Shown here one piece after another: positions 2,894 through 56,200 of a DNA stretch of 62,695 nucleotides. The DNA is taken from positions 1-62,695 of the IMG/VR virus record IMGVR_UViG_3300002461_000278; one strand, 5' to 3'. This stretch comes from a virus. The notes under the pieces are model-generated. The model ran no database searches. It worked only from the letters and a program-made list of their open reading frames with translations, and was not told the DNA's origin. The translations under genes and the position numbers were made by a program. Numbering within the stretch: position 1 is the stretch's first letter; the number at the start of each line of letters is the position of its first letter.

Positions 2894-2910
2894 GCTGGCT
2901 CCTGTGCGCT

Positions 2911-2922
2911 GTCACGCGTGAC
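2911..2922. repeat. GTCACGCGTGAC palindrome, copy 1 (extended form CTGTCACGCGTGACAG, 2909..2924)
   Basis: Exact 16-bp palindrome in the 107-bp gap between the ParB-like and ATPase genes. It lies 18 nt upstream of the ATPase start codon. Confidence 0.9.
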
Positions 2923-3000
2923 AGAGGTTGGTTGCTGTGAACGCGTCACAACTTCCGCCATGGCCACACCGGTCGGCCATGGCGGTCTTTGTCGGCTGCT

Positions 3001-3846
3001 TCACGCGGCCTTTTTCGACATGTGCGCCTCGAGGTGCTCGGCGACGATATCGACCATCACGGCAGTCGCACCGACACGATCCTCGGCCGCTTTCTTCATT
3101 GCTTTGCCGAGCGCGTCCGCAAAGTTGAAGCGGTTAAAGGCCTCGATGAGACGCTTCTCGCTTTTGCGCCATTCGGGCTCCGCGTCGATGTTGTGGCAGA
3201 TGGCCCCGGCGATCGAGGCGCGCACCATGCCGGGATTGCCCTTTCCCGACTTCGTAATGCACCGCAGGGCGGTGGTCAGCAGCTCGGCGCCGTAGCGCTT
3301 GAGCAGCCTATTTAGTTGCGAGGCGGCCAGCGTCTCACCTGGTCGCATCACTGCAGAGTGAACGTGGCTGCGGCAGATCGTGACGCCGGCGGCACTACAA
3401 ACTCTATCAAGCTCGAGTGCACCGACATCGCCGGCTGCGACACGCGCCGCGTGAACTTGTACCGTGCTGATTTTCGTCACCTGGCCGTTAATCGCCGCAA
3501 AGGCCTTGGCTTGCTCGACTTCGTTTCCGGTGACTACTTGGCAAGGCACTTGTGTGAGGCCGCGTAAAGCGGCCGCTGTCGTGCGGTGCTGGCCGTCGAT
3601 GATTGCGTAAACACCTTCGCCGACCGGCGCGACGATGACCGTTCCAAAGCGCGACCAAGAAAAATTAATCGCGATCGAGCGGACATTCGATGCGCCGCGG
3701 CCGTTGATTTCTCGCTGATAGCTGTCATCGACGCGCAACCGGCGAATTTCCACCCATTGCAGCTTGGGCTCCTTGCCCGGCGCGAAGGTCGGGAGGTCGG
3801 TCCTCAGTGCGAATGGCTTGGGATCGATAGGTCTAAGTTTGGGCAT
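3001..3846 (-). CDS. ParB N-terminal-domain (ParB/Srx fold) protein
   Basis: IIDGQHRTTAA motif with an upstream RRLRVDDSYQR segment. The protein is 281 aa. Confidence 0.75.
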   Translation of the reverse strand: MPKLRPIDPKPFALRTDLPTFAPGKEPKLQWVEIRRLRVDDSYQREINGRGASNVRSIAINFSWSRFGTVIVAPVGEGVYAIIDGQHRTTAAALRGLTQVPCQVVTGNEVEQAKAFAAINGQVTKISTVQVHAARVAAGDVGALELDRVCSAAGVTICRSHVHSAVMRPGETLAASQLNRLLKRYGAELLTTALRCITKSGKGNPGMVRASIAGAICHNIDAEPEWRKSEKRLIEAFNRFNFADALGKAMKKAAEDRVGATAVMVDIVAEHLEAHMSKKAA

Positions 3847-3945
3847 CTCGGCTCCTGTTCGGCGGGCGTTGAGGTTGACAACGCCGCCGGTATGCCCGCG
3901 CGCTACGACGTCGAGACGCTTTACAAATGAGAAAGATGGAGCGCA

Positions 3946-4341
3946 TCAGCGCACCGCTATGTTGGCGATGATGATCGCGGCCGGGATCGCCGCGCAGCCG
4001 TAACCGAGCGCGAAGATCGTCCAGAACCCGAAGCGCTGCGGCTCGGGCTTGGTTGGGGCGGGCTCCGGCTCCGGCGCCGGTGCAGCGACCGGGGCGATAT
4101 CGACCTGCACAACCTGGGGAAGCGGCCAGGCGGTCGGCGCTTTGATCTTCCCGGCGATGCGGTCAGCCAGCGCAAAGGCGAACTTGGTGACGTCCTCGCT
4201 ATCCTCAAGACGAAGTAGCGCGTTGAAGCAGCCGTCGATCACGCCTCGGGCGTGCTCAGCGGCTGTCTCGACGTCCCGTTGAGCCGCCAGTGTGAGCAAC
4301 TGGCCCTCGTTGAACATCGCGGTGTCGGCGCGCTGGCTCAT
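3946..4341 (-). CDS. Hypothetical C-terminally membrane-anchored protein
   Basis: The start was moved to ATG 4341, which forms an ATGA overlap with the upstream gene. The C-terminal hydrophobic stretch is FWTIFALGYGCAAIPAAIIIANIAV. Confidence 0.55.
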   Translation of the reverse strand: MSQRADTAMFNEGQLLTLAAQRDVETAAEHARGVIDGCFNALLRLEDSEDVTKFAFALADRIAGKIKAPTAWPLPQVVQVDIAPVAAPAPEPEPAPTKPEPQRFGFWTIFALGYGCAAIPAAIIIANIAVR

Positions 4342-4544
4342 TGGCCACCCTCGATCCAAGAAGCCCGCACCAATTCGCCGCCCATTAAGGCCCGCGCAAA
4401 GTCGTCCAGATTTACCTCGATCTTTGCGAGCCGCTTTCTGCCGCCCGCGACCTTTGAAGTCGCGATGATGCGGACGAGCTTGCCTTCTTCATTGCCGTGG
4501 ACCCGGCCTATCTGCAGCTCGCATACGATGATGCTTTGGCTCAT
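4338..4544 (-). CDS. Hypothetical protein (68 aa)
   Basis: ORF track. ATGA overlaps are present at both ends. Confidence 0.5.
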   Translation of the reverse strand: MSQSIIVCELQIGRVHGNEEGKLVRIIATSKVAGGRKRLAKIEVNLDDFARALMGGELVRASWIEGGQ

Positions 4545-4693: not shown

Positions 4694-4784
4694 CTCTAGA
4701 GTCGAATCGCGGTTCTTAGGGCCGCTTTTGTCAGCGTCACGAGTCGAATCGTTGATTGAAAAACTTGAAGAACTTCCCCGAAGT

Positions 4785-4836: not shown

Positions 4837-4939
4837 GTATCTTTTTGATATTGCGTACCATTTTTAGCCGCTCCGATTTTGTTTCGACTCGTTAAGGCCC
4901 GGCGATTCGACTCCCGGCCGATCCTGTTCCCCAAACGCC

Positions 4940-6500: not shown

Positions 6501-6706
6501 CGGCGTGCCTTCCTTTTTTCGGCCGGCGTCTCGATCGAGCGACTGACCGGCTTCACCGGCGAGAACGCGACGACGGGCGAGGGCATCGCTGGCGCGACCG
6601 CATGGCAATGCGGACAGGTGGCCGAGCCGAGCCGTTCGCTCTCGGGCGTATGCACGACGAAATGCCGACCACAGCCGCAGGCGAACCAGTGCGTTGTGGC
6701 GGTCAT
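6497..6706 (-). CDS. Zinc-ribbon mini-protein
   Basis: ATG at 6706 forms an ATGA overlap. The Cys pattern is CGC...CPHC (MTATTHWFACGCGRHFVVHTPESERLGSATCPHCH). Confidence 0.5.
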   Translation of the reverse strand: MTATTHWFACGCGRHFVVHTPESERLGSATCPHCHAVAPAMPSPVVAFSPVKPVSRSIETPAEKRKARR

Positions 6707-6954
6707 TGCCTTGGGCCCCGTTCTTCGTCGAGCCTTCGCTCGCAGTGCTCGTACTCTCGAAGCGCGCCCTTGCACGGCCCGTCGCATAGCTTTTGCAAGG
6801 TGTCGGCCCGCTGGTCGGGCGGGAATGACGAAACCAGTGTCAACCCGATCGCGTGCGCAAGAGCCAACAGCCGGTACGGCGGGCCAAGGTGCGCGATCGC
6901 CTCGGTTATTTTTTCCGAGGCTTGAAGAATTTCCTTCTTGCTATGCGCCGTCAT
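6703..6954 (-). CDS. Hypothetical protein (83 aa)
   Basis: ORF track. The gene is translationally coupled on both sides. Confidence 0.55.
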   Translation of the reverse strand: MTAHSKKEILQASEKITEAIAHLGPPYRLLALAHAIGLTLVSSFPPDQRADTLQKLCDGPCKGALREYEHCERRLDEERGPRQ

Positions 6955-7490
6955 CGCTTCGTCCTCCTCAGGCTTTTCCGCGACTGCATCTTGCGCTTGC
7001 CGTTGGCGAAGCCGCGGCTCTGCAGCTTCCGCTTCTGTGTCAGCCTGGTCGGCCGCTCGAGCTGAGCACGGAGCTGCGCCGCGTGGGTGTGGTTGCCAGC
7101 CTTCACCGCCATCTTCGCCTGGTGCAGCCGCTCGGTGTCCCGAATGTTGCGGGCGCGGGCGCGCTCGCCGATGTCGCTGCCGCGCGTGGTGACGGTTTTC
7201 TCGGCACCTTCTTTGCGGCCGAATGTCCTCTCGTCGTGTTTGCCCTTCCGAAGTGCGAAGATTTTGGACGGATCGAGCTGCGGCGGAATGAAGTCATTGG
7301 CGACAGTGTCGAACGGGCGCTCACTGAGCGGCGGGCGATGGTCGAAATTGATCTTCCCGATGTCGGCCTCGGTGAACGGGACGCCTGCCACATCGCAAGC
7401 TTTCTGCCGAACAACCACAGCAAGTTTGATCGCAAGAGGAATGTCCTTGCGGTGGTCGGAGACGCGGAATGTGCCGGGCTCGAGGATCAT
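6951..7490 (-). CDS. Hypothetical protein, possibly HNH-type nuclease-like
   Basis: INFDHRPPL...VANDF...KGKHDERT resembles an H-N-H arrangement. The C-terminal tail is basic. The function is tentative. Confidence 0.55.
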   Translation of the reverse strand: MILEPGTFRVSDHRKDIPLAIKLAVVVRQKACDVAGVPFTEADIGKINFDHRPPLSERPFDTVANDFIPPQLDPSKIFALRKGKHDERTFGRKEGAEKTVTTRGSDIGERARARNIRDTERLHQAKMAVKAGNHTHAAQLRAQLERPTRLTQKRKLQSRGFANGKRKMQSRKSLRRTKR

Positions 7491-7693
7491 GCTGCGAAGT
7501 CCTCTCGCTGCTCGTTTTCCTCGATCGCCATTTCAATGATGGCGTCCATGTCCGCTTCGCCGGTGGCGTGGCAGACCGGACACTGAAATTCTTCGTGCTT
7601 GGTCGGAAACCAGCCGTCGCTCACTTCGACAATCGCGGTGACGTAGCGATTGCCTCTGCAGCGTGGGCACTTTGCGTAAAGGGGCAGGGTCAT
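7487..7693 (-). CDS. Zinc-ribbon mini-protein
   Basis: CPRC...CPVC pattern in 68 aa. Confidence 0.6.
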   Translation of the reverse strand: MTLPLYAKCPRCRGNRYVTAIVEVSDGWFPTKHEEFQCPVCHATGEADMDAIIEMAIEENEQREDFAA

Positions 7694-7890
7694 GCGCGCA
7701 TTCCCGCTTTCTCTCGCACGCGCTCGGCCGCGCCGATGATGCCGCGTGTGATGATTTCCTGATTGGCGATCTCCTGCACGGCGCGCACGGTCAGTTCGCC
7801 ATGCACTTGCACGATTGCGCCGACGAGTTCGACCAGGTGGGCCTTGTATTGCTCGCGGGTCAGCGGGGTCATGAGTGGCGCGTCCATCAC
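7690..7890 (-). CDS. Hypothetical protein (66 aa)
   Basis: ORF track. The gene is coupled to both neighbours. Confidence 0.55.
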   Translation of the reverse strand: MMDAPLMTPLTREQYKAHLVELVGAIVQVHGELTVRAVQEIANQEIITRGIIGAAERVREKAGMRA

Positions 7891-9029: not shown

Positions 9030-9038
9030 GGGGGGTCC

Positions 9039-10592: not shown

Positions 10593-12182
10593 TCAGGCGG
10601 TGGCGACCAGGTCGGCCATCGTCCGCTCGCTGGCGTTCTCAGTGGGCCGGGCCGTCTGGCGGCGCGCGGTCGGTTGCGGCCGATCGGGCTGCTGCGACGG
10701 TGGGGGCATATCGCTTGGGTTGCCCTCGTCGGGTTTCCCGCCATCGGGATTGCCCTTCGGCGGCTCTGCCGGGTCGCTATTGCCACCTTCGTCGCCACCA
10801 TCCCCCGGCTTGGTGATCTTGCCGATTGTGTTCTGGCGGGCGATCAGCGCCGCATTGATGACGTTGGCGTCCTCGTCCTTGAGGCCAGTCAACTGCGCGA
10901 GCTGAATGCCGAAGTGCATGCAGTCGGCCATCGACGCGAGCTGGCCGATGTCGGCGAGCAGCGTGTCCTTGAGCGAGATCTGCGCCGGCGCGGTCGGAGC
11001 ATCGAAGCCGGGGATTTCGTCGCCGATCGCCGTGGTGGTTTTTTCGGGCGCGAACAGGGTGGCATATTGCGAGGGCTTGCCCTTCAATTCGCGGTACATG
11101 CTGTCGTAGCCCATGCGGAGATCGACCAGCGGCAACACTTCCTCGATCTTCGTCCAGGTCATTTCCTCGTCGCCGAAGTGATCGCGCATCAGCTTGATCT
11201 TGGCTTGCTTGTCTTCCTTGCCGGTCGATGGATAGTGCTCGACCATCAAAGTCTGCAATTCGTCGAGGACGACCTTCCTCTGTGTCGATGACCAGTCCTT
11301 CTTCTCGGTCGAGACCGCATGCTGGCTGGTGCGCTTCGTATCGACGCCGAGCTGCTTGCCGCCGAGATTGAGCCGGTTGATGTGCGGAAAGAAGGCGCGG
11401 AACGTCCGGTTGACCATCTGCTCGGTCGTCAGGCGATTCCCGTCGTCATCGTCTGTCGTGAAGATAAAGGTCTTGCCGTCGATCAGGGTCGAGCGGTCCT
11501 TGATGACGTGCGCCTCGCGCCAGAGCTTGGTCACAGATTTGCCCTGGACTTCCTGACGCAGCTCCATCTGAACGAGCAGCGACGGCTCGAAGCCGAATTC
11601 GCCTTCGGCCTTCATCTTAACGCCGGTCTTCTCGAGCTGCTTCTTGCCGTCGTCGTCCTCGAAATAGTCATACTCGAAGCCGGCACGGCCGCAGACGCCA
11701 ATGTGCAGCGCTGAGTTGATGTAGCGATCGCTGAACTTCTGCCAGCCGTCCTCGCCCTTGAGGTAGGACCAATCCTGAAACTGAAGGCGGTACGGAAATT
11801 TGAGCTTGAGCTTTTTGGTCTTTTCCCGAACGTAGCTATCGCAAAGCTCCTTCCAGAAATGCGTGATGGAATCGGCGATGAGAAAGGCCGCGTTCTTCTC
11901 GGCCTCGTCGATCGCGGTGATGAGGTCGGTAAAGGAGCGCGTCTTGGCGACGTGCAGATCGACCCCCATTTCCTTGAAGTCGGGGATGATCCAGTCGCTG
12001 CCGGTCTCGGTGTCGAGAAAAAACACCGGCCGGTTGGCGTATTCGATGTTGAGCTTTTGCAGGTGCTTGACCAGCCCGATCGCGAGCAGGCCACTGGTCT
12101 TGGTCTTGCCTGACCCCTGGAACCCCATGGAGCCTTGCTTGAGATAGGCCGATGTAATCTCGGCCGGCGCGAACAGTGTCAT
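10593..12182 (-). CDS. P-loop NTPase (RecA-like/AAA_24-like early ATPase) with an acidic, Pro/Gly-rich tail
   Basis: Walker A is GFQGSGKTKT, followed by FLIADSITHFW. The protein is 529 aa. Confidence 0.75.
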   Translation of the reverse strand: MTLFAPAEITSAYLKQGSMGFQGSGKTKTSGLLAIGLVKHLQKLNIEYANRPVFFLDTETGSDWIIPDFKEMGVDLHVAKTRSFTDLITAIDEAEKNAAFLIADSITHFWKELCDSYVREKTKKLKLKFPYRLQFQDWSYLKGEDGWQKFSDRYINSALHIGVCGRAGFEYDYFEDDDGKKQLEKTGVKMKAEGEFGFEPSLLVQMELRQEVQGKSVTKLWREAHVIKDRSTLIDGKTFIFTTDDDDGNRLTTEQMVNRTFRAFFPHINRLNLGGKQLGVDTKRTSQHAVSTEKKDWSSTQRKVVLDELQTLMVEHYPSTGKEDKQAKIKLMRDHFGDEEMTWTKIEEVLPLVDLRMGYDSMYRELKGKPSQYATLFAPEKTTTAIGDEIPGFDAPTAPAQISLKDTLLADIGQLASMADCMHFGIQLAQLTGLKDEDANVINAALIARQNTIGKITKPGDGGDEGGNSDPAEPPKGNPDGGKPDEGNPSDMPPPSQQPDRPQPTARRQTARPTENASERTMADLVATA

Positions 12183-13024: not shown

Positions 13025-13405
13025 CTAGGCGTGCGCCAGCGCATGAGCGACGTCGGCGACGGCGTGACGGCCGGCGTTGTCCTTGATCGCGATGAAGCTC
13101 TCCGCGAGCTTCAAACCGCACGGCGTGGCGATCATCTGGCCGATCAGATCCGCGCCTTCGGTCTTGGGCTTGCCGGCGGGCTGCTCGTCGAAGAACCACG
13201 ACACCGGGCGATTGAGGATCTCGGCGATCTGCGCCAAGCGGCTCGAGCCGATGCGGTTGGTGCCTTTCTCGTACTTCTGCACCTGCTGGAAGGTGAGGCC
13301 GAGACGCTTGCCGAGCGCTTCTTGGCTCATCTTTTCAATCAGCCGTGCACTGCGCACGCGCTGGCCGACGAATACGTCGGTCTTGTTCGGGGGGCTCTTG
13401 GGCAT
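13025..13405 (-). CDS. XRE-family HTH transcriptional regulator
   Basis: VGQRVRSARLIEKMSQEALGKRLGLTFQQVQKYEKGTNRIGSSRLAQIAEIL. Confidence 0.85.
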   Translation of the reverse strand: MPKSPPNKTDVFVGQRVRSARLIEKMSQEALGKRLGLTFQQVQKYEKGTNRIGSSRLAQIAEILNRPVSWFFDEQPAGKPKTEGADLIGQMIATPCGLKLAESFIAIKDNAGRHAVADVAHALAHA

Positions 13406-13612: not shown

Positions 13613-13926
13613 GACGCGCTCCGCACGACGGCAAGCGCCTGGTCGTAGCCTTTGTCGTCAAGCCAGTCGGTCGCCAGATCGTGCACATGATCGGGCGCGA
13701 GCCCGATGCCGTCGCCATCGATCAGCTCGGCGCGCACCAGCTCGAATTCGTCCGGATAGCCGGGATCGCCGCCCGAGACGTGGCAGATGGTCGGCGCTGC
13801 GCCCTTGACCGTGTGCTTGAACACGACCTCGATCTTGAGGTTGGCAACCTCGCGTTCATCCTCGGGCATCCACGACGTGCGGAAGCTGTAAGGAATTTCG
13901 GCTGTGATGGTGTGGTGCTGGCTCAC
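13609..13926 (-). CDS. Hypothetical protein (105 aa)
   Basis: ORF track. The GTG start forms a GTGA overlap. Confidence 0.6.
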   Translation of the reverse strand: MSQHHTITAEIPYSFRTSWMPEDEREVANLKIEVVFKHTVKGAAPTICHVSGGDPGYPDEFELVRAELIDGDGIGLAPDHVHDLATDWLDDKGYDQALAVVRSAS

Positions 13927-16513: not shown

Positions 16514-16537
16514 GGTTGGTCCCTCGATTCGGACACA

Positions 16538-16589
16538 ACCATACATTTGAACTGAATTTTAGGTCAAGCGATATTCAGTCAAACTGAAT
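16538..16589 (-). promoter_or_regulatory. Candidate leftward early promoter overlapped by ATTCAGT/ACTGAAT operator-like repeats
   Basis: On the minus strand: -35 TTGACC (16567..16562), an 18-nt spacer, and -10 TATGGT (16543..16538). There is a perfect inverted repeat ATTCAGT-CAA-ACTGAAT (16573..16589) and a third ACTGAAT at 16551..16557. Confidence 0.35.
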
Positions 16590-16603
16590 GCTCCCATACA
16601 GCC

Positions 16604-16642
16604 CTGTCACGCGTGACTCCCGTGACTCAGCGTGACGTCACG
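16604..16642. promoter_or_regulatory. Operator-like array of GTCAC/GTGAC half-sites (includes GTCACGCGTGAC copy 2 at 16606..16617)
   Basis: CTGTCACGCGTGAC tcc CGTGAC tcag CGTGACGTCACG. That is five half-sites in 39 bp. The second palindrome, CGTGACGTCACG, is at 16631..16642. Confidence 0.6.
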
Positions 16643-16791
16643 CCAGACTAGACGAGACAAATAGCTACCTTCTGAGTTCGGAGCTGCGACAAAAGAGGCA
16701 ACCGACAAGGAAGTGGAAGAAAATTCTTTACGCCGGTTCCCTCGGGCATACTGTAGGGCGCTGGAAAAAAGCCGTTAAAAACAATTACGTA

Positions 16792-17004
16792 GTGGGGAGT
16801 TGCGTGATGACGGTGGTTGAATTGGGGGGGCGACGGCGTCGTGGCGGTAACAATTCAGATGGGGGCGGCGGCGGCGATCCGCGCGATCGCTGGTTGAAAC
16901 GGCAGGCCAATCTGGTGGTCTCTCAGCTACCTGAGGATCCCGAAGAAGCTGTGCGTGTGCTGGAATTAGCCCGGAAAATTGTACGTTATTTAAGCGGACA
17001 TTAG
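16792..17004 (+). CDS. Possible small protein (70 aa); weak call
   Basis: The C-terminal half is helix-like (DRWLKRQANLVVSQLPEDPEEAVRVLELARKIVRYL) and the N terminus is Gly/Arg-rich. Third-position GC is atypically low. The ORF is convergent with the repressor gene. Confidence 0.25.
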   Translation: MGSCVMTVVELGGRRRRGGNNSDGGGGGDPRDRWLKRQANLVVSQLPEDPEEAVRVLELARKIVRYLSGH

Positions 17005-17324
17005 GCCGACTTCGCGGTGTCTTCGGCCTGCAGCTTTTCGATTTCTTTCGCAAGGTCGTGCGGAAGATGCCGCGTTTCGCCGAGGAAAATGTAGTTCAGC
17101 GGGGCGCCGGTGCGTTGGTACACCGAGATCGCGCCATCTACGCCTATACGATTGTCGCCCGTCTCGGCGTTGTTCCAGGTCGGGCCGGCGATGCCGCACA
17201 GGCGCGCAAATTCGGCTTGGCTTATGTCACGTTCCCGACCTTGCAACCGGCTGTAGGCCAGCCGAATCAGGCGAAGCCTTGGGCCCATTTGCGCTGGATT
17301 GTCCTGCCGAGGAATCGCCGCCAT
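17001..17324 (-). CDS. cI-like HTH (XRE-type) repressor candidate
   Basis: Start moved to ATG 17324, with AAGAGG 9 nt upstream. The HTH region reads ISQAEFARLCGIAGPTWNNAETGDNRIGVDGAISV. It is divergent from a Cro-like gene. Confidence 0.65.
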   Translation of the reverse strand: MAAIPRQDNPAQMGPRLRLIRLAYSRLQGRERDISQAEFARLCGIAGPTWNNAETGDNRIGVDGAISVYQRTGAPLNYIFLGETRHLPHDLAKEIEKLQAEDTAKSA

Positions 17325-17414
17325 AGGCGAAAACCTCTTATATTCAGCAAGATGACGCCATTCAGCAGTCGCTTGACTTGACACTGTTCAGTCTCACTGT
17401 AGTTTCTCGGCCTC
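17325..17414. promoter_or_regulatory. Divergent cI-like/Cro-like intergenic control region
   Basis: ATTCAG occurs at 17342 and 17360 and GTTCAG at 17386. Tandem TTGACT/TTGACA lies at 17373..17383. A possible -10, TAGTTT, is at 17400..17405, only about 10 nt before the ATG at 17415. Confidence 0.35.
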
Positions 17415-17645
17415 ATGAAGAACAAAAAACTTCATACGGTCGATCAGGTCGTCGAAACGATCGGGCGCGACCGCGTCAAGAAGCTCACCGGCAAAGACAG
17501 CACGCATCTGTGCAACTGGAGCGATGCCGGTAACTTTCCTCCGACGACCTATGTGGTGCTGACCGATGAGCTGAAGCGCATCGGCTGCAGCGCGCCGCCC
17601 TCACTGTGGCGAATGATCGAAAGCGTTAAGCAGCGCGCGGCCTGA
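17415..17645 (+). CDS. Cro-like small DNA-binding protein candidate
   Basis: 76 aa. It is the first gene of the rightward operon and divergent from the repressor candidate. The functional call is positional. Confidence 0.5.
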   Translation: MKNKKLHTVDQVVETIGRDRVKKLTGKDSTHLCNWSDAGNFPPTTYVVLTDELKRIGCSAPPSLWRMIESVKQRAA

Positions 17646-17773: not shown

Positions 17774-18037
17774 ATGGACCACGCAGCGCCATCGCCCGCG
17801 ACATCGTCGCCCGTTCCGCAGCAGAAGGGCGCGTGGGTCGTCTACGACGAGAGCAGGGACGATCGGCAGCGCTTCGTTGCGCGCAAGTTCTTCATCGGGC
17901 CGAACATGCTGCTCGATGCCGACGACGCCGTCGGCGCAGCTTCACTCGTTGAGGTGCGCAAGCTTCTCCCGGAAGGCCTGACCAATCTCGGCCGCACCTA
18001 CGACGATCCTGCGAACGTCGTGGAGACGTGGGCGTAA
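17774..18037 (+). CDS. Hypothetical protein (87 aa)
   Basis: ATG at 17774 after AAGGAA. Its stop overlaps the next start (TAATG). Confidence 0.55.
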   Translation: MDHAAPSPATSSPVPQQKGAWVVYDESRDDRQRFVARKFFIGPNMLLDADDAVGAASLVEVRKLLPEGLTNLGRTYDDPANVVETWA

Positions 18038-18909
18038 TGCAGCGCCCGCCGCCAGTGCGTCCCCAACCTCCGCAACGCTCGAAACGCTACGGCTGGTTTC
18101 GGCTGTACGAGGATTTTCCGAACCACCCAAAGTGGCGATTGATCGCGGCGAAGTCGGGCGTGCCGCTCGTCTACGTCAAAGCCTTCGTCATGGATTTGTT
18201 GTGCAAGGCGTCGAAGGCGCGCGCGCGGGGTCATCTTGGGGACATCGACTTCCACGAGATCGCGATCGCCAACGACGCGCAGGCCGAGCAGGTCGCCGGC
18301 GTCTACAAGACGCTCTGCGAGATCGGCTGGATCGAAGACGACTTCATCGTGGACTGGCTCGATCGCCAGCCCGACCACGAGGACCCGACAGCCACCGACC
18401 GTCAGCGCAACAAGCGCGCACGCGATCGCGCGAAGCGCCACAAGCTCATGGGCACCGCGAGCGAGGTTGATGAGCTGATCCTGTCACGCGTGACGGTGCC
18501 ACCTGCAGAGGAAGTCGCGCCGGTGCGTCCGACCGAGCGCATCGAGCCGCTCAAGCTCGTTTCCGGCACGTCGCCCGAAGCCAAAGCAACCAACGACAGC
18601 CGCGCGCGCGCGTGGCTGTTTGGCGACGGCGTGCGCGACACCGGCAGCGCCAGCCTGATCGTGGCGCACCACCTTGGACAGAAGCGCCTCTCGGCGGATC
18701 TGACGGTGCGGCGCTGGTATGGCGACCATGGCCGCGATGCCGTGATGCTCGCCGAGATCATCAGCGCCGCCGATCGTGACGCGCTGAACGGCGAGGCGTT
18801 CGAGAACTTGGTGCACCAGCGCCTCGAAGCCGCGACAAGGCTGCGCGAGAATGGCCCGACACTTCCGCTCGGGCCCGCTGCGATCAAGGGAGGGCGTGAT
18901 GGCCAGTAA
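18037..18909 (+). CDS. Hypothetical protein, possibly a replication-initiation/organiser protein
   Basis: 290 aa. The N-terminal region reads YGWFRLYEDFPNHPKWRLIA... The position fits an early replication module. The function is inference only. Confidence 0.55.
   Translation: MQRPPPVRPQPPQRSKRYGWFRLYEDFPNHPKWRLIAAKSGVPLVYVKAFVMDLLCKASKARARGHLGDIDFHEIAIANDAQAEQVAGVYKTLCEIGWIEDDFIVDWLDRQPDHEDPTATDRQRNKRARDRAKRHKLMGTASEVDELILSRVTVPPAEEVAPVRPTERIEPLKLVSGTSPEAKATNDSRARAWLFGDGVRDTGSASLIVAHHLGQKRLSADLTVRRWYGDHGRDAVMLAEIISAADRDALNGEAFENLVHQRLEAATRLRENGPTLPLGPAAIKGGRDGQ
18483..18494. repeat. GTCACGCGTGAC palindrome, copy 3 (inside a CDS)
   Basis: Exact 12-mer, preceded by CT. Confidence 0.9.
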
Positions 18910-22742: not shown

Positions 22743-22993
22743 GCTTCACCGTCGAGCGCAAGCGCCGCCAGCCTGGTGCTGTGCCGCCGTCGCAGGCGCC
22801 GAAGGCCTCAACTCGTCCCATGAGCCGGGAAGAGATCACCACCGCGGTCGCCGACATCAAGGACACGGCGCGCCGACTGCGACCGCCCCTAAACCAGAAG
22901 CCCAACGCCTTTCACGAGGACAAGGACGAGCTGGTGAAGATGGCCGAGCGCCTCGAGGACGCATTGCGGGGCAACAGGCCACTGCGGTGCTGA
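22739..22993 (+). CDS. Hypothetical protein (84 aa)
   Basis: ATG at 22739 (MSFTVERKRRQPGAVPP...). Confidence 0.5.
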   Translation: MSFTVERKRRQPGAVPPSQAPKASTRPMSREEITTAVADIKDTARRLRPPLNQKPNAFHEDKDELVKMAERLEDALRGNRPLRC

Positions 22994-23610
22994 TCCGGCC
23001 GCAGCCGCCGATCGAGCTGACCGGCGTAGAGGGAGCACTCGCTCCAAAGTTCGCGCCGGCGCCGGATCTGCTGGAATGGGCGCAGGCCTCGTTCGTCGAC
23101 GAGGGGGCAGAGACAGCCAATCCCGACCATGCGCATCTCGGTATGGCGCGCATCGGGATGCTCTGGACCAGCGCCGCCAACGCCAAGCACGGCCGCACGA
23201 TCGTAGGGCAGGCTGAGTTCAAGCCACCCGGCGGCACTATGGGGAAATGGCAGCGCGCTCGAGCGCAGGCCCAGATTTACGGGTGGTTCGGCGGAGAGCT
23301 GGACTTCCTGCTGACGTTCTCGGCGCAATACGCCGCGATGTGCAGCGATGCCGAGTTCTGCGCCCTGGTCGAGCACGAGCTCTACCACTGCGGCCAGGCC
23401 AAGGACGAGTTCGGCGCACCCAAGTTCATCGAAGACACCGGGATGCCGGTCTTCTGCATGAGGGGCCACGACGTCGAGGAGTTCATCGGCGTGGTGAAGC
23501 GCTACGGCACGATCGCCGCAGACGTCGCCGCCTTGGTGGATGCCGCCATGGAAGCGCCGGTCCTCGATGGCCCGAAGATCCGCAGCCTTTGCGGCACCTG
23601 TCACGCGTGA
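22987..23610 (+). CDS. Putative zinc metallopeptidase (HExxH)
   Basis: The VEHELYHCG motif fits the 'putative phage metallopeptidase' type. The C terminus ends in CGTCH. Confidence 0.6.
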   Translation: MLIRPQPPIELTGVEGALAPKFAPAPDLLEWAQASFVDEGAETANPDHAHLGMARIGMLWTSAANAKHGRTIVGQAEFKPPGGTMGKWQRARAQAQIYGWFGGELDFLLTFSAQYAAMCSDAEFCALVEHELYHCGQAKDEFGAPKFIEDTGMPVFCMRGHDVEEFIGVVKRYGTIAADVAALVDAAMEAPVLDGPKIRSLCGTCHA

Positions 23611-23611
23611 C
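23600..23611. repeat. GTCACGCGTGAC palindrome, copy 4 (extended form TGTCACGCGTGACA, 23599..23612)
   Basis: It spans the TGA stop of the metallopeptidase gene and lies 15 nt upstream of the phosphatase GTG. Confidence 0.9.
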
Positions 23612-23626: not shown

Positions 23627-24136
23627 GTGATCGAGATCGAGCCCAATTTCTTCGTCGGCAACCAGATCGACGAGCAGAAGGTGCGCGGCAAGGAAGGCTG
23701 GGCCGTCGTCCACGCCTGCAAGGAGCCGTATCACCGCGAGGCGCTCGGTTACTCCGGTCAGGGCGCACCCAAGGACCACAAGGAATATCTGATCGCCCGC
23801 CGCGGCGATCGCCTGTGCCTCAACCTGGTTGACGTCTCGGACCCGCAGTATGTCCGCAAGGAGATCATCGACGCGGCGATCGCCTTCATCCGCGAGCAGC
23901 TCGACGCCGGTAAGAACGTGCTGGTCCACTGCAACCAAGGCCATTCGCGGGGGCCGACGATTGGGATGCTCTGGGCCGCGCCGCATCTGCCGTTCTCGTT
24001 TGAGCAGGCGGTCGAGGCCTTCCGGGAGCGCTATCCGGACTATCAGCCCGCCGGCGGCATGCTCGGCTTCGCCATCGAGCATTGGCCGACGTACTGGAAC
24101 ATGACCGAGCGTGCGAAGTCATTGACCCCGGCTTGA
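23627..24136 (+). CDS. Cys-based (CX5R) dual-specificity/protein-tyrosine-type phosphatase
   Basis: VHCNQGHSRGPT is an HCxxGxxR signature. GTG at 23627 follows GGGAGAG. Confidence 0.7.
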   Translation: MIEIEPNFFVGNQIDEQKVRGKEGWAVVHACKEPYHREALGYSGQGAPKDHKEYLIARRGDRLCLNLVDVSDPQYVRKEIIDAAIAFIREQLDAGKNVLVHCNQGHSRGPTIGMLWAAPHLPFSFEQAVEAFRERYPDYQPAGGMLGFAIEHWPTYWNMTERAKSLTPA

Positions 24137-31116: not shown

Positions 31117-31135
31117 CGATCGCGTTGCGAACGCC

Positions 31136-31151
31136 GTTTTTAATTAAAAAC
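31136..31151. repeat. A/T-core perfect palindrome GTTTTTAATTAAAAAC
   Basis: 16-bp palindrome with 14 consecutive A/T in roughly 65% GC DNA. It lies between the divergent SGNH and scaffold genes. Confidence 0.9.
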
Positions 31152-31168
31152 CGAAATCACGACGCGCC

Positions 31169-31180
31169 GTCACGCGTGAC
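31169..31180. repeat. GTCACGCGTGAC palindrome, copy 5
   Basis: Exact 12-mer followed by AG. It lies 100 nt upstream of the scaffold ATG. Confidence 0.9.
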
Positions 31181-31279
31181 AGGCAGCTCAGAGTTCGCCC
31201 GCCGGCAGCGACATGCCGGCAAAGGTGCCGCCGACCTCGAAGGGCGCTTCCGCAGCCATCCCGCGACAGGAGATGACCC

Positions 31280-40583: not shown

Positions 40584-41273
40584 GTGTTCATTACCGGCAC
40601 ACACCGCGCCCAACAGGAACGGGCAGGGCGCGGCGCGCAATTCTTACGACCGGGCGTCCAAGGCCCGAATGTCGACAACAACAACATCATCACCAATCGG
40701 ATCGCCACGCAGCAGGAACTGCCGTGGCATCCGCGGTCGTTCCTGCAGGCTGGCGTTCAAGGGCCCAATGTTCGATCGCCGACGCGCGATGCGATCTTCA
40801 CGCGGCAGGAACTGCCATCGCATCCCGGATCGGTGCTGCGGCCGAGCCTTCCCGGCTTCACCGTCAAGGCCCCGATACGCGATGTCATCCTCATTCGGCA
40901 GGAGATGCCGGGGCATCCGCCCTCGATCTTCCTTGCCGGTGTGCAGGGACCGGACGTCCGGTCGCCGACGCGCGACACGATCATCACGCGGCAGGAGCTG
41001 CCCGATCATCCTCGGTCGCGCTTCTACGCTGGTGTCCAGGGTCCGAACGTCGCGCCGAACCCGATGGTTCGGAACACGGTGTTCATCAGGCAGGAAATGC
41101 CGTGGCACCCGGCTTCACTGCTGATCTCGAACCCGCCGCCGGTCTTGAAGCAGATCCCGTTCGTGCGCGGCCTTCTCGTACTGCAGGAAATGCCTTGGCA
41201 CCCGCGCTCTCAGGTTCGCGCCGGCACGCCACCCACGTCCTACGAGGACGTCGAGTTTTTCATAATCCAATAA
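40584..41273 (+). CDS. Tandem-repeat protein (six ~31-34-aa repeats)
   Basis: GTG start. The repeat unit is GVQGPNVRSPTRD.I.TRQE(L/M)P.HP. Confidence 0.55.
   Translation: MFITGTHRAQQERAGRGAQFLRPGVQGPNVDNNNIITNRIATQQELPWHPRSFLQAGVQGPNVRSPTRDAIFTRQELPSHPGSVLRPSLPGFTVKAPIRDVILIRQEMPGHPPSIFLAGVQGPDVRSPTRDTIITRQELPDHPRSRFYAGVQGPNVAPNPMVRNTVFIRQEMPWHPASLLISNPPPVLKQIPFVRGLLVLQEMPWHPRSQVRAGTPPTSYEDVEFFIIQ
40650..41222 (+). repeat. Coding tandem repeats, period about 93-99 nt, six units
   Basis: (R/Q/L)QE(L/M)P(W/S/G/D)HP recurs six times at regular spacing. Confidence 0.8.
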
Positions 41274-42845: not shown

Positions 42846-43050
42846 TCCGTCGGTGCAGATCCCGCGCGACTGCGAGCAGCTCGCGCAGCAGGTTCCGGAG
42901 CCGTCCTGGTCGAAGGGCGCCAACCCCAAGGCGCTGCTTGCCGACACCACCATCGCGCTGGTCGAAGCCAACGGCCACCTCGACGCAACCCGCACCTGCC
43001 AAGAGCGCCAGCGCGAGAGCTTCGCGCTTCCGTCACGCGTGACAGAGTAA
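42769..43050 (+). CDS. o-spanin-like lipoprotein; its 5' end overlaps the i-spanin gene in another frame
   Basis: MPRALSMMLICAFVAAC ADRPKPSPDP gives a lipobox plus a Pro-rich start. The start may instead be 42787. Confidence 0.55.
   Translation: MPRALSMMLICAFVAACADRPKPSPDPSVQIPRDCEQLAQQVPEPSWSKGANPKALLADTTIALVEANGHLDATRTCQERQRESFALPSRVTE
43032..43043. repeat. GTCACGCGTGAC palindrome, copy 6
   Basis: Exact 12-mer followed by AG. It lies 12 nt upstream of the tailspike ATG, inside the o-spanin 3' end. Confidence 0.9.
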
Positions 43051-50257: not shown

Positions 50258-50271
50258 CGAGCTAATCGCGG

Positions 50272-53200
50272 ATGAACCTCGACATCACCGGCCTTAAGCC
50301 GCTGGATGCAAGCGGCTTGACGCCGGTAGCGCCCGACGGGCTGCAGATCGACGTCACCGGCTTGAAGCCGCTGGACGTCACGGGCTTGAAGCCCGCCAGC
50401 GCCGCACCGGCGCAAACCTCCCCAACTGAAACATCGCTGAGCGATTACCCGGTCGAATTCGGCAAGGGTGTGCTCGAAGGCGCCAAGAACCTTCCGGCTT
50501 CGGCCATGAAGGGCGCTGGCGCGGCCGCGACCGGCTTTACGCGTGATCAGCGGACCGTATTCGACCGCATCGATCGCGGCGAACGCGTCTCCGACATGGA
50601 AGATCCTGTCGGCTATCAGCACATGTCGCCGGAGCAGCGCATGGCCGCGCGCGCCGATATCGACCGCGCATCGGCCGTGCCGCTGACGCAATCACCGCTT
50701 TATCGCGCCGGCGAGGCCGTGGAGGAGTTCGGCAAAGAGACGCTCGCGCCGGCGCCGGGCTTCGAAGGCAGCTGGACGCGCGATATCGGCTCGGGCTTCG
50801 GCTCGATGGCCGCGGGCATCGGTTTGTCGCTGGTGCCGCATGTCGGTCCGTTCGCTGCGCAGGCGACGTTCTTCGGCGCCGGGCAGGGCGAAGCGGTCGA
50901 TCGCGCCGTCAAGAAGGGTGCGACCGAGGAGCAATCGATCCAGGCCGCGCGCCTCGGCACGATCCCGGGCGCAACTGACGCACTCGACATGCTGCTGCCG
51001 CAGCTCGGCTCGACCGGCCGCGCGCTCGGCTTCATCAAGCGCGTCGGCTTGCGCGCGCTCGAGGGCGCGTTGCTCGAGGGCGGGCAGGAGGGCGTTCAGC
51101 AGCTCATGCAGAACGCGATCGCGCAGGGCGTCTATAACCCGGCGCAGGATCTGCTCGAGGACGTGCCCCGGTCGATGGCGATCGGCGCCATCGTCGGCGG
51201 CGCGACGTCAGGCGGTTTTGCCGCGGCGGACCGCCGCCAGCCGGCCGCGGCGCAACCGCAGGCCGCCCCGGCGCAACAAATCGACCCCGTTTTGCAACAG
51301 GCCGCCCCGCAGGGCGTCCCTTCCGGGGCAATTCCCGCCGAAACCATCCTCCCGCCCGACCCGGTTAACCAGCCATTCAGCACGTCTGTAGAAAGCCCCG
51401 CAGCGCCAATAGGAGCCCCGCTGAGTGGGGGTCCGGTTTTGGCCGATGCGAGTGCCGGAATTCAGCCGCCAGCCAGCGGGCTCCCCGCCGCCGCAGAGCT
51501 GCCGGGCAATCCAGTTGAACTGGACGCGACCGGCCTTGAGCCGATGCCGCCGCCGTCCACCCGCCCGCTGCTCGAGCAGATCCTCAACGACCCGCGCCCG
51601 GTCGCCGAGATCCGGGCGGAGATGGAGGCGGCGCGGAAGGCCAGCCTGACGCCGGCGGTAGATTCGGCTCGCCTTGGCGAGGTGCAGGACGACGGAATTC
51701 TCGGCTTTCAGTCACTGAACGGCCAAGTTCGGCTGATTGACGGTCGCGTTATTCCAGTCTCCCAAGGCGCCGGGCAGATTTGGGGCCCTGAAGGCGTCTT
51801 GATCCACCCGAACATCGTAGCGGCGTTCAAGAACGGGCCGACCGACGAGTGGGTGCCGACGAAGTTGCCCGGATCCCGCCGCGCGCCGGTGCAGCTCGAG
51901 ACGGCAGGCGATCCGAGCCTCGGCGCCGAACAGACCGTGCAGCCGAAGTCGATGGCGCAGGCCGAGGCCGGTAATTACCGCAAGCGGCACGTCAAATGGA
52001 ACGGCATCGACGGCGCGATCGAAACCGAAGCCGGCCAGGAGCGCACTGGCATCGGCGCCGACGGCACGCCGTGGTCAGTGACGCTCCAGCACCCCTACGG
52101 TGAATTCAAGCGCACCGAAGGCAAGGACGGCGACCCGGTCGACTTCTACGTCGGGCCCAATCCCGATTCCGGCCGCGCGGTGGTGATCGACCAGGTCGAT
52201 CCCGACACGCGTAAGTTCGATGAGCACAAGGTGGTCATCGGCGTGCGCAGCGGCGATGAAGCGCTCGCGGTCTACAATTCCGGCTTTAGCGACGGCAGCG
52301 CCGAGATGCGCGTCGGCGCGGCGACCGAGATGAGCGCGGCCGAGCTGAAGACGTGGCTCGAGCAGGGCAACACCAAGAAGCCGCTTGCCTACACCAATCC
52401 GCCGGTTGACCGATCGCCGAAAGGCCCGTTGTCGCTGTTTCAGTTTCTCGCCAAGAACGGCGGCATTCAGGATCACGGCGGCGAGCTGCGCCACATGGGC
52501 CTCGATCGTACCTTCGTGCCCTCGTTCGGCCGGCTGGTGAGATCCAGCGGCATGACGCTGGATCGCGCGCGCGAAGCCCTGGTCGAAGCGGGGTACCTGC
52601 AGGATGCAGGCGCCATCAGCGGCGGCAATCCTGAAAGCTTCATCAACGATCTGCTCGAGGCGCTGGACGATGAGAGCCGCGGCAACCGGCTGTATTCCGT
52701 CCAAGACGTCGAAGCCTATCAGACCCGCGAATCGCAGCGTCAGGAAAAGGCCAATGCGGAGGAGCTTGCGCGCGCGATCGACGACGTTCGCTCGATCGCC
52801 AAGACCGAAGGCATCAACGCGACCGAGCAAGAGCTGAAAGACGCTGCCGAATTCTCATTGGTCAATGGCACTGACCTAATCGACGGACTGATCGAGATTG
52901 TCGAGCGCAGCGCTTACGCCGCGCACGATGAAGTGGTAGCGTTAGAACCTCAGGAGCAGGGCGATGGACAGCCGGCCGCGGATGACACCGGAAGATCGGA
53001 TCAGGGGAGCGCAGGATCTGCGCCGCCGCGCGAACGCGCAGCCGGGCCTGAAGCAGGCGCAGCGCCAGAACCTCCGGCGCGTGGCGAGCAATCTGGTCAA
53101 GCTGAACAGCCTCGAGGCGAAGCGCCGGTAGAGGCGCCGACCGACAATCGGCAGTACCTCGCATCGAAGGCGATGGAGGACGCACTCGACAAGATCGAGG

Positions 53201-56200
53201 TAGCGGTCGAGGCCAACGACCGAAAAGCGGTAATGGAAGCCGCGCGCGACGCTAAGCAGCTTCTCGCCGCCACGCCGCAGGCCATCAAGGACGACGATCT
53301 CCAGTATTGGTCGCAGTTCGGTCAGGTCATCGCGAAGATGGTCAAGCCGGGCTATGTGACGGCGAAGCAGCAGATCGAAGCTGAAGCCGCGCCGCCGCCG
53401 CCTGTCACGCGTGACAGCGGTTTAATTTCTGCGCCCTCAAATGAGGACGAAAAAATTAACACGCCTGCGCCGCCGCAAGCCTCCGAACCGGGCGAGAAAA
53501 TCGACACGGCCCCGGAAACTGCAGCTGCGCCGTCGATTGCTCTGGCACGGGCGCTGATGAAGCGCCTCGGGGCGGGCGAGGCGATCACAGCCAAGATCCT
53601 GCAGGACGAGGCGACCAAGGCCCACGGCGGTACGCTCGCAGAGGGCAAGTTCGACCGTAAGGACGCGCACGACGCGCTTGAGCTGGCGGTCAATCTCTAC
53701 ATTCGCGACACCCGCCACCTGCGCAGCGATAGCCCTGACGCGCGCATGGCATTCAAGATGCTCGACGAGTTTTTGGCAGACCTGCCGACGCAGCGCGTGC
53801 GCTCCGACGAGATGGTCGCGTTCGATCAGTTCTCCACGCCGCCGAATTATGCGCTTGCCGCGGCCTATGCCGCCAACTTGCGCTCTGGCGACACGCTGCT
53901 TGAGCCGTCGGCCGGCACCGGCTCGCTGGTCGCCGCGTCATCCATGCCCGGCGTCAAGATCGTCGCCAATGAGCTGTCCGACCGCCGTGCCGCGCTGTTG
54001 CGCGAGCTGGTCGGCACAAACGGTCGCGTCTTTAAGGAAAACGCCGAGCAGCTCGACAACGTGCTGCCCGATGACGTGACGCCGACCGTCGTGGTGATGA
54101 ACCCGCCGTTCTCGCAGACCGCTGGTCGCATGGGCGACAAGAAGGTGCCGATGACGCCGGCGGTGCACATCGAAGCCGCCTTGAAGCGTCTCGAGCCGGG
54201 CGGGCGCGTGGTCGCGATCGTCGGCCGCGGCATGACGATGGGATCGCCGACCTTCCGCGCCTGGTGGGGCAAGATCGGCGAGAAATATACCGTGGTCGCC
54301 AATATCGGCGTTGCCGGTGGCGCCTTTGAGAAATACGGCACCACTTTCGGCACGCGCCTGGTTGTCATAGATAAGGTCCAAGCCCCGGCGAATCATAAGC
54401 CGGTGCTGGTCGAAGCGCAGACGGTCGAGGACCTGATGCGCGCATTGGAGCCGATCCGCGATGCAAGACCATCCTCACCAGCACCACAAATTAGCGACGC
54501 TCAATCTCCTCCAGTTAAATCGAGCCGCGCTCCGTCAGTTGAAGGACGTGCAAGCGGAAGCACCGACGCACTATCTGCATCTGCTCAATCTGGCGGCATG
54601 GGGACTGGAGAACGGGGCGGAAGGGGAGTGGCCGTTCAAGGATCAGGCCGCGCTTCAACAGCAGGTGGACAATCTGTTCGCGTGGAAGCCGCAGATCGCG
54701 TTCAGGTGGCTGCTGAGCAATCCGAACGGGCAGGACAAGACAGAGCAGACGGCAAACCTCCTCAACGAGATCAACCTAGCGTCGACGCCGAAGGCAGCCG
54801 CGGCGGCAGTGCTCAACGCGATCTACAGCCGTCAGGTAGCGGACAATCCAGCGCTGCAGCCGTCGGCGAGCGAGTAGGGCTAGAACAGGTTGCGCCCGGC
54901 AAGCAGGGCGCTTCCGAGATCTCCGAAAGCCTCTATCAGCCTTATGAGCCCGCGCGCGTCCGCGTGAAGGGCGCAAAGCCGCATCCCGGCCCGCTGGTGG
55001 AATCGGCATCGATGTCGTCGGTTTCGCCGCCGCCGGCGACGTATGCGCCTCATCTGCCGAAGGCTGTCATCGAAAAGGGCCTGCTCTCGCTCGCCCAGCT
55101 CGAGACGACGGTTTACGCCGGTCAGGCGCACTCCAAGATGCTGCCTGCAGGCGAGGGCGAAACAGCCATGCGCCGCGGCTTCTTCATCGGCGACGGCACC
55201 GGCGTCGGCAAAGGCCGCGAGATCGCTGGCATAATCCTCGACAACTTCCAGCAGGGCCGGAAGAAGGCGATCTGGGTCTCGGAGAAGCAGACGCTGCTCA
55301 CCGACGCAAAACGCGATTGGGGCGGTCTCGAGCAGAACGCCAACCTCGTGTTCAACGCTGGCAAGGTCAAAACCGGCGAGCCGATCACCGCCGCAACGGG
55401 CGTGGGCTTCATCACCTACGACACGCTCAAGGGCGGCATGTCCGACCAGGAGGCGATCGCGCGCGGCGGTTTCGTGCGCAAGCAAAAGGTGTCGGTCAAC
55501 GGGCAGAGCGGCACGGTCGCTAAGATTGAGCCCGGCAACAGCAAGCGCCCGGCGCAGATTACCGTCGATCTGGACAACAAGACGCGCATCACCGCGCCCG
55601 CGAATGAAGTCACCGCGGCCGAGACCACGACTGTCAAATCCCGCGTCGACCAGCTCGTCGATTGGGTCGGCGCCGACTTCGACGGCGTTATCGCCTTCGA
55701 CGAAGCCCACAACATGGGCAACGCCGCCACGACCAAAGGCGATCGCGGTTTCAAGGACGCGGCGCAAAAGGCGCTCGCCGGCATCGCCCTGCAGGACCGC
55801 CTGCCGAATGCACGCGTGGTCTACGTCTCCGCTACTGGCGCAACCGAAGTGTCCAATCTGGCTTTCGCCAACCGTCTCGGCCTGTGGGGACGCGGCACGC
55901 CGTTCGCCTCACGCGACAAGTTCGTGGCCGACGTCGAAGAGGGCGGCATCGCGGCGATGGAGCTGATCGCCCGCGACATGAAGCAGCTCGGCCTCTACAC
56001 CGCGCGCAACCTCTCCTATGACGGCGTCGAATACGCCCGCGTCGAGCACAAGCTCGATGCCAACCAGCGGGAGATCTACGACACGCTGGCCGAGGCGTGG
56101 CAGTCCGTGCTGCGGAACATCAACGCCGCGCTCGAGGAGACCGGCGGCGACAAGGACGCGCGTGCCAAGTCGGCCGCGAAGTCTGCATTTTGGGGAGCGC

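Follow-up and report, generated by a model that had tools for sequence, protein, structure and literature searches.

This analysis concerns a perfect 12-bp palindrome, GTCACGCGTGAC, in the genome of an uncultivated phage (IMG/VR record IMGVR_UViG_3300002461_000278, positions 1 to 62,695; this whole stretch of 62,695 nucleotides is referred to as the window). The palindrome occurs seven times, and our preferred explanation, to which we give a probability of roughly 0.55, is that the copies are iteron-derived sites bound by the phage's own O-like replication initiator. One copy heads an origin-like module, one lies inside the initiator gene and five are scattered around the genome. An initial annotation of this DNA, made from the sequence alone, had listed the copies and missed that the 12-mer consists of two GTCACG half-sites, head to head, and that this half-site builds an iteron-type module here and in many other phages.

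A count over the window returns the seven exact copies at the positions first reported (2911, 16606, 18483, 23600, 31169, 43032 and 53404). This is far above chance, and the initial estimate that such a 12-mer should occur far less than once was sound: 100 dinucleotide-preserving shuffles gave a mean of 0.03 copies (maximum 1), a first-order Markov model predicts 0.01, and the palindrome ranks top among the over-represented 12–14-mers of the window. The excess is confined to the exact sequence. Ten sites match with two or fewer mismatches against 6.3 expected, the three beyond the exact set being at the level of chance, and the half-site GTCACG/CGTGAC by itself is not over-represented in the window. 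Selection therefore acts on the perfect palindrome. The flanks of the 14 half-sites are CT in 9/14 and CC in 3/14, giving a 16-bp consensus of CYGTCACGCGTGACRG. As initially annotated, exactly two copies (2911 and 53404) extend to the full 16-bp palindrome CTGTCACGCGTGACAG, and a degenerate copy, TCACGCGTGA, is present at 29871.

Two other identities for the motif were considered and dropped. A mobile element, e.g., a miniature inverted-repeat transposable element, is ruled out by the flanks of the seven copies, which share nothing past 16 bp, and the listed repeat families miss every copy. A LexA SOS box (CTGT-N8-ACAG) has both of its arms in only two of the seven copies, and this reading was rejected because the conserved part of the palindrome is its GC-rich centre, which is invariant, and not its arms.

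The copy at 16606–16617 heads the origin-like module (16604–16665), which reads CT-GTCACGCGTGAC-tcc-CGTGAC-tcag-CGTGAC-GTCACG and ends in a purine-rich tract, CCAGACTAGACGAGACAAATAG (16643–16665). The palindrome is followed there by three further half-sites within 16621–16642 (CGTGAC at 16621, CGTGAC at 16631 and GTCACG at 16637), and the module is the sole 60-nt stretch of the window with at least four GTCAC/GTGAC pentamers. Two candidate unwinding elements accompany the half-sites: the purine-rich tract and an adjoining AT-rich patch (16520–16598). The patch also holds promoter and operator candidates: ACTGAAT repeats and a possible leftward early promoter. Several of the loci that we fetched from related phages and prophages (given L-numbers here) have the same module: L024, L034/L076, L039/L001, L207 and L209. 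In L001/L039 the three further half-sites are kept despite diverged spacers. From this arrangement we infer that 16604–16665 is the origin core.

The proposed binder is encoded on the plus strand at 18037–18909 (start at 18028 or 18037). Its profile matches are PHROG 3729 and 3926, ‘replication initiation protein’, and PHROG 10469, ‘DnaD-like helicase loader’, and in tblastn searches its residues 22–150 are 33–37% identical to genes annotated as ‘DNA replication protein O’, ‘replisome organiser N-terminal’ or ‘primosomal protein I’. In an AlphaFold2 model (mean predicted local distance difference test score, pLDDT, of 81), a helical domain that includes a two-strand hairpin is confidently predicted at the N-terminus, a second helical domain forms the C-terminus, and a basic helix and a disordered linker lie in between. 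Profiles, alignments and model together point to a replication initiator of the O-like or replisome-organiser-like kind.

The initiator gene also carries the palindrome. In the window it holds one copy (18483–18494) and not a whole module, and this copy lies at the start of the sequence coding for the disordered linker, where it encodes the peptide SRVT. In the AlphaFold2 model this is the place where a helix passes into the linker, with pLDDT below 50 from residue 152. Relatives of the initiator were drawn from IMG/VR and from metagenome and genome assemblies. Among them, the gene itself contains the whole module, within its linker-coding part, in L034/L076, L078, L079, L084 and L086 (and, with a variant half-site, in L080 and L083), whereas in the window, L024, L039/L001, L207 and L209 the module is just outside. 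The window's internal copy is 455 nt from the 5' end of the open reading frame (ORF), an offset shared with L073/L206 (74% identical protein) and L209 (40%) and close to that of L074 (473 nt; 44%). S-R-V-T is nearly invariant in 20 aligned homologues, within a variable segment. The exact 12-mer is present in 21 of the 30 loci that hold an initiator relative, a set in which some loci were fetched via the motif itself and several come from one contig; with protein-based fetching alone, 11 of 18 such loci carry it.

The strongest clue is that, within this family, the half-site changes when the initiator does. All four half-sites of the module are GTTACG in L080 and L083 (palindrome GTTACGCGTAAC) and three of the four are GACACG in L081; the initiators of these three loci are 28–29% identical to the window's, with L080 and L083 at 29%. 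The obvious other candidates, the immunity regulators, behave differently. A CI-like gene (17001–17324, minus strand) and a Cro-like gene (17415–17645, plus strand) sit at the point of divergence, and the CI/Cro homologues of L080 and L083 are 55–59% identical to the window's. The same is true of L207, which has GTCACG and a 72% identical initiator. For example, the CI homologues of L083 and L207 are both 59% identical to the window's, yet their half-sites differ. Because the half-site changes with the initiator lineage while CI/Cro similarity stays equal, specificity follows the initiator and not the immunity regulators. The CI/Cro intergenic region (17325–17414) also contains zero copies of GTCACGCGTGAC and has ATTCAG repeats instead. 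Such ACTGAAT/ATTCAG(C/T) repeats, which are distinct from GTCACGCGTGAC, lie in the leftward promoter region (16550–16590) and between CI and Cro (17340–17400), and they are likely to be the immunity operators. CI and Cro were therefore excluded as binders of the palindrome.

GTCACG arrays are found well beyond this family of initiators. The pattern GTCACGCGTGAC-N3-CGTGAC, which has 18 specified bases, occurs in 52 IMG/VR contigs against a rough estimate of 1–3 by chance. In one genome per bacterial species it gives 74 matches, of which about 30 are genuine arrays, i.e., have at least five GTCAC/GTGAC pentamers within ~240 nt. Most of the bacterial arrays are in Hyphomicrobiales (Microvirga, Devosia, Rhizobium, Bradyrhizobium, Brucella and Variibacter) and Caulobacter, with fewer in some Beta- and Gammaproteobacteria and in a few Gemmatimonadota, Acidobacteriota, Myxococcota and Oscillospiraceae. 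The half-sites often follow a 9-nt period, (CGTGACGAA)n, as in L040, L070, L072 and L033/L059, and AT-rich or purine/pyrimidine-skewed tracts come after them. An ORF spans the array in 31 of the 53 sequences examined. The 17 best array-spanning ORFs, scanned together with the initiators of the window and L001, match replication-initiation, primosomal and DnaD-like PHROGs and the Pfam families DUF1376, Phage_rep_org_N and DnaB_2. The largest clusters of proteins encoded near arrays are replisome-organiser-like proteins and DnaB helicases, and no other protein family is common there. Conceivably, a single GTCACG iteron code is common to the replication modules of phages infecting several bacterial phyla.

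Arrays that lie inside genes are translated as ..VTRD.. in some proteins and ..SRVT.. in others. Since they are read in two frames, the constraint is on the DNA and not on the protein. The window's own coding copies are likewise in different frames, as had been noted at the outset, encoding SRVT at 18483, CHA-stop at 23600 and VTRD at 53404. The initial proposal of a constraint at the DNA or RNA level stands for DNA; the RNA half of it is not supported, given weak folds and an invariant sequence.

Two side observations belong with the arrays. Many modules are followed by a short alternating (GC)4–5 tract (L024, L034, L039, L049, L054 and L151), and arrays also occur in prophages of Oscillibacter, Gemmatimonadota and Acidobacteriota. 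In L081, nucleotides 400–700 of the initiator gene (7035–7335 of a gene at 6635–7717), in the linker region, contain the variant palindrome GACACGCGTGTC together with two perfect DnaA boxes, TTATCCACA and TGTGGATAA.

The window's five remaining copies are perfect solitary palindromes distributed over early, packaging, head, tail and polyvalent-protein genes, an unusual scattering for a putative iteron. The copy at 2911–2922 lies between a ParB-like gene and a HerA/FtsK-like ATPase gene (1094–2893, minus strand), 17 nt upstream of the ATPase start at 2893. At the boundary between early and packaging genes, the copy at 23600–23611 supplies the TGA stop of the 22987–23610 reading frame, ends 15 nt before a GTG at 23627 and is 540 nt upstream of a small-terminase-like gene (24140). 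The copy at 31169–31180, in the divergent intergenic region before the scaffold/capsid operon, ends 99 nt before the ATG at 31280, and an AT-rich patch with a terminator-like hairpin and T-run (31118–31164) ends 5 nt before it. The copy at 43032–43043 ends 11 nt before the ATG (43055) of the tailspike gene, which gives a beta-helix match. The last copy (53404–53415) is inside a giant gene (50272–61797) that encodes a 3841-residue polyvalent protein, where it is read in the VTRD frame within a Pro-rich linker. An AT-rich patch (53418–53463) begins 3 nt after it, and no other 40-nt stretch between 41.3 and 62.6 kb reaches 60% AT. Seven of the 16 codons in this patch have G or C at the third position (GC3) against a GC3 of 0.81 gene-wide, and other low-GC3 stretches exist in the same gene.

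Bases 1–94 of the window are identical to bases 62602–62695, and this exact terminal overlap of 94 bp shows that the genome is complete and circular, with a length of 62,601 bp. Around this circle, the spacing of the seven sites is more even than that of random sites (maximum gap 13.7 kb; P = 0.016 by simulation, in a post hoc test). An AT-rich patch abuts three of the seven copies (16606, 31169 and 53404) in a genome with just 17 such patches, an association that is significant in the window. The distances from copies to gene starts in the initial annotation were correct on recheck, and its statement that most copies lie just upstream of gene starts holds for the window. The statement fails for the relatives, in which roughly half of the solitary copies fall within genes.

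Relatives that share the initiator family have solitary copies as well (L073/L206, L076, L024, L207 and L005), and total counts of the 12-mer, including origin and initiator copies, reach four in the 13.7 kb of L074 and five in the 14 kb of L086. Outside the replication region a single location recurs, upstream of the small-terminase gene at the early/packaging boundary, where the distance is 540 nt in the window (23600), ~230 nt in L206 (15149) and 40 nt in L207 (14118, with a one-mismatch copy beside it). The tailspike-proximal copy is missing from L007, L013, L214 and L215, and a scan of IMG/VR and metagenomes gave no relative with the exact 12-mer in the tailspike region. A search with the giant-gene segment gave no relatives. 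Relatives that lack the 12-mer carry CGCACGCGTGAG in the scaffold-gene leader, at a spot that appears by eye to match.

If the preferred explanation is correct, GTCACG would be the iteron of the phage's replication origin, with a core at 16604–16665 made up of the palindrome, three half-sites, the purine-rich tract and the flanking AT-rich patch. The initiator (18037–18909), which we infer reads the half-site, would bind the palindrome as a dimer and also engage the single half-sites of the array. Each of the other six copies would then be a solitary dimer site of high affinity, with one in the initiator gene's linker-coding part, where relatives hold the whole origin, and five around the circle. 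What the initiator would do at these sites is speculative, and within the initiator-site reading any single role should receive at most about one third of the weight.

One such role has a model in SPP1, whose oriR is to our knowledge the sole close precedent for distant origin-type sites. SPP1 has oriL within gene 38 and oriR among its late genes, where it is bound by gp38 with nanomolar affinity (PMC6316719, PMC3485210), and it has been proposed that gp38 at oriR blocks forks and thereby triggers the theta-to-sigma (concatemer) switch needed for headful packaging (PMC3485210, PMC6316719). The initiator bound to solitary sites could act in the same way here, triggering a switch from theta replication to concatemers for a phage whose P22-type portal and large terminase are taken to indicate headful packaging. 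Alternatively, it might block transcribing RNA polymerase at operon boundaries in the manner of mycobacteriophage stoperators (PMC9283540), or the solitary copies might be auxiliary unwinding sites or a sink that titrates the initiator. The two phages are alike in having a replisome-organiser-type initiator, an origin in or near the initiator gene and a distant second binding locus in the late region (predicted here from sequence). They differ in that the single distant locus of SPP1 carries direct repeats plus an unwinding element, whereas there are five solitary 12-bp palindromes here, of which just two adjoin an AT-rich patch, and the two initiators are at most distantly related in sequence.

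A broader version of this idea, which we offer tentatively and consider doubtful as a whole, is that the initiator doubles as a genome-wide architectural or regulatory protein. Solitary palindromic iterons every ~10–13 kb would then be programmed barriers or auxiliary unwinding sites. They would either stall forks, bringing about the switch from theta to concatemers, or control read-through into the operons for packaging, head and tail, in which case late expression would be set by titration of the initiator through replication.

Iteron origins used by O-like initiators are of a known kind. In lambda, the O initiator binds iterons and the origin lies inside the O gene. The present system appears similar in that putative initiator-site repeats with dyad symmetry lie in the linker-coding part of the initiator gene (as a whole module in L034, L078, L079, L080, L083, L084 and L086, and as one palindrome in the window), in that a strand-asymmetric tract, a candidate unwinding element, adjoins the repeats and in that the iteron sequence changes with the initiator lineage. 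It is unlike lambda in using a 6-bp half-site, both singly and as an abutting inverted pair. The window's module, moreover, is outside the gene in the early promoter region, and five more perfect sites lie far from the origin; we know of no such distant perfect initiator sites in lambda. Iteron plasmids offer another comparison: their initiators (e.g., RepA of pPS10, RepE of F and pi of R6K) bind direct repeats at the origin as monomers and an inverted-repeat operator as dimers. Here too one half-site is used both directly (in the array) and inverted (in the palindrome), and a palindrome within the initiator's own transcription unit would permit feedback. Unlike in the plasmids, that palindrome is inside the gene and not at the initiator promoter, many more palindromes lie elsewhere, and the replicon is a phage. 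The GTCACG iteron itself and its breadth are not in the searchable literature; searches for GTCACGCGTGAC, and for GTCACG with ‘iteron’, returned nothing relevant.

Several observations weigh against the preferred explanation. GC skew does not mark 16.6 kb, its minimum being near 51.6 kb and its maximum near 25 kb. The window's module is 1.4 kb upstream of the initiator gene and in a promoter region, which leaves room for a role as an operator. A Foldseek search of the initiator model against the PDB gave nothing significant, only weak local winged-helix matches. The same half-site accompanies different initiator families and occurs in prophages of several phyla, which is odd for a lineage-specific pairing of initiator and iteron. 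As for the solitary copies, array-bearing phages from other initiator families seldom have them (none were seen in most), and the positions of those outside the replication region are poorly conserved and turn over fast. Finally, an AT-rich patch is present at only 1 of the 18 solitary sites of relatives, i.e., there is no association. The association seen in the window is therefore not a general property, and we build no conclusion on AT-rich patches.

The alternative that survives best, though we consider it unlikely, is that the palindrome is the operator of a dedicated phage regulator (an Xre-type helix-turn-helix protein encoded at 13025–13405, or another small early protein) that controls promoters or blocks elongation, with the origin arrays merely sharing its half-site. 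Perfect palindromes of 12–16 bp are typical targets of dimeric helix-turn-helix proteins, four or five of the seven lie between genes or at gene boundaries (two of them in divergent promoter regions), and homologues of 13025–13405 are encoded by most motif-bearing relatives (L014, L034, L206, L207 and L209). However, most array loci that were fetched by DNA pattern have no such homologue, the exceptions being L022, L034 and L128 only, and loci whose homologues are 50–52% identical (L087–L090 and L192) contain zero copies of the motif. The high share of intragenic copies in relatives also fits an operator poorly, as do the behaviour of CI and Cro, which do not track the half-site change, and the different repeats of the immunity region. 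The dimeric phage regulator suggested initially is thus upheld to the extent that a dimeric DNA-binding protein is the best candidate, whereas an O-like initiator is likelier than the CI/Cro-type helix-turn-helix protein or late-gene activator then envisaged.

Scattered operators of this sort do exist in phages. The conserved inverted repeats of phiC31 are dispersed, near-identical sites of the stoperator kind. Stoperators proper, those of cluster A mycobacteriophages, are dispersed repressor-bound sites that are thought, or have partly been shown, to stop transcription (PMC9283540, PMC6550527). The window resembles these systems in having many near-identical short sites (seven exact copies) over a phage genome, often at gene boundaries. 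In those systems, however, the immunity repressor binds the sites, and their sequence matches its operator at the immunity promoter, whereas the CI/Cro region here is without a copy. Stoperators are also asymmetric and oriented with transcription, unlike a perfect palindrome that is tied to an origin.

A less probable alternative again is that a conserved host protein reads the GTCACG arrays and that the phage recruits it at the origin and at the solitary sites. This would explain why the same arrays accompany different initiators (DUF1376, replisome-organiser-like and the window's family) and why they occur in prophages of Alpha-, Beta- and Gammaproteobacteria, Gemmatimonadota, Acidobacteriota, Myxococcota and Oscillospiraceae. 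It would not explain why the half-site shifts in concert with the initiator lineage inside a single family, to GTTACG in L080/L083 and GACACG in L081. DnaA boxes beside arrays are not enriched (4 of 85 loci against ~3.4 expected), and we know of no widespread bacterial DNA-binding protein with a site of the GTCACG type.

The genome encodes a ParB-like protein (3001–3846, minus strand; DUF6551; PHROG 1033, ‘ParB-like partition protein’), so the palindromes could in principle be its parS- or KorB-operator-like sites, serving partition or genome-wide silencing. The gene is directly beside the copy at 2911, the seven sites are evenly spread, and parS sites and KorB operators are 13–16-bp palindromes that can be dispersed. 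ParB–parS, KorB–OB of RK2 and the centromere sites of N15 share with this genome both the scattered palindromes and a ParB-family gene. The motif, however, does not occur with ParB-like homologues: the 704 kb around 41 of them (31–50% identity) contain 0 copies of GTCACGCGTGAC and no other enriched palindrome, and the ParB-like protein was excluded as the binder on this ground. Motif-bearing relatives came via the initiator and not via ParB, and the half-site is linked to the initiator and makes direct-repeat arrays inside initiator genes. We therefore regard this alternative as very unlikely.

That the motif works at the RNA level, forming a hairpin or a processing site directly ahead of ribosome-binding sites, was among the initial suggestions and is highly improbable. 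Three copies do lie 11–17 nt upstream of start codons, and a palindrome gives an identical hairpin from either transcribed strand. The hairpins are nonetheless weak (−5.7 to −13.3 kcal/mol; z from −2.2 to +0.8 relative to shuffles), two of the seven minimum-energy folds bypass the palindrome, no T-run is present at the copies and the sequence is invariant, with no compensatory change. Direct-repeat arrays of half-sites at the origin, and copies deep within genes in relatives, also argue against it. Hardly more credible is a role as the target of methylation (by the phage's own enzyme, in the initial suggestion, or by a host enzyme) or of restriction: the core contains ACGCGT and relatives L207 and L209 encode C5-cytosine methyltransferases, but no methyltransferase domain was found in the window's proteins, tblastn with the relatives' enzymes gives no match in the window, ACGCGT is at its chance level (24 occurrences against ~31 expected) and a specificity of 12–16 bp is atypical of such enzymes.

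The initiator-site explanation places a probable origin and names an initiator for an uncultivated phage group. It also makes GTCACG half-site arrays a simple signature of replication modules in ~80 other contigs of phages and prophages, the majority of them from Hyphomicrobiales and other Proteobacteria. If the initiator does bind the solitary copies, the phage would be a second and more extreme case of the SPP1 oriR idea, in which distant sites for an origin protein control forks or transcription; if the solitary copies have no measurable effect, the finding shrinks to an ordinary origin annotation.

The window comes from an activated-carbon metagenome, and GenBank contains no near-identical phage. 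It encodes a major head protein, a large terminase and a P22-type portal, the last of which is only ~30% identical to the portals of cultured phages such as Pseudomonas KPP25 and phiR18 and Acidovorax AP1. Genes run leftward from ~16.5 kb and rightward from 17.4 kb, and the minimum of AT skew is at 17413. The giant polyvalent protein has an inorganic-pyrophosphatase domain (residues 562–697) and a Strawberry-notch-type helicase composed of AAA_34 (best match 1784–1938) and Helicase_C_4 (2107–2372). At the far end of the leftward arm is a gene for an outer-membrane beta-barrel (PF13505; 61794–62459, minus strand), a probable moron that may point to an alphaproteobacterial host.

Further observations concern individual genes. 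The ParB-like DUF6551 protein and the 599-residue HerA/FtsK-like ATPase, which has a C-terminal winged helix, are encoded as a pair (1094–3846, minus strand), and homologues of the former are common in IMG/VR (41 loci). A 70-codon ORF (16792–17004, plus strand), situated between the module and the CI-like gene, has a good ribosome-binding site and matches no family; it is kept in L073/L206 (83% identity) and partly in L024. In L209, a Xanthobacteraceae prophage, the initiator gene is directly followed by a gene (10995–11243) for an Acb2/Tad1-hairpin protein of the anti-CBASS/Thoeris sponge family, a counterpart of which was not detected in the window. The structural gene at 40584–41273 contains three tandem copies of a 93-nt unit (40701–41018), and homologous repeats are present in L002 and L003.

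The scaffold gene is directly preceded by a ~40-nt leader, GGGCGCTTCCGCAGCCATCCCGCGACAGGAGATGACCC-ATG (31240–31279 in the window), which is near-identical in relatives whose proteins are only ~45% identical. It may be a late promoter or a translational operator. In four relatives the leader is duplicated in tandem (L002 at ~13620–13665, L004 at ~10920–10965, L005 at ~4335–4380 and L006 at ~3490–3535).

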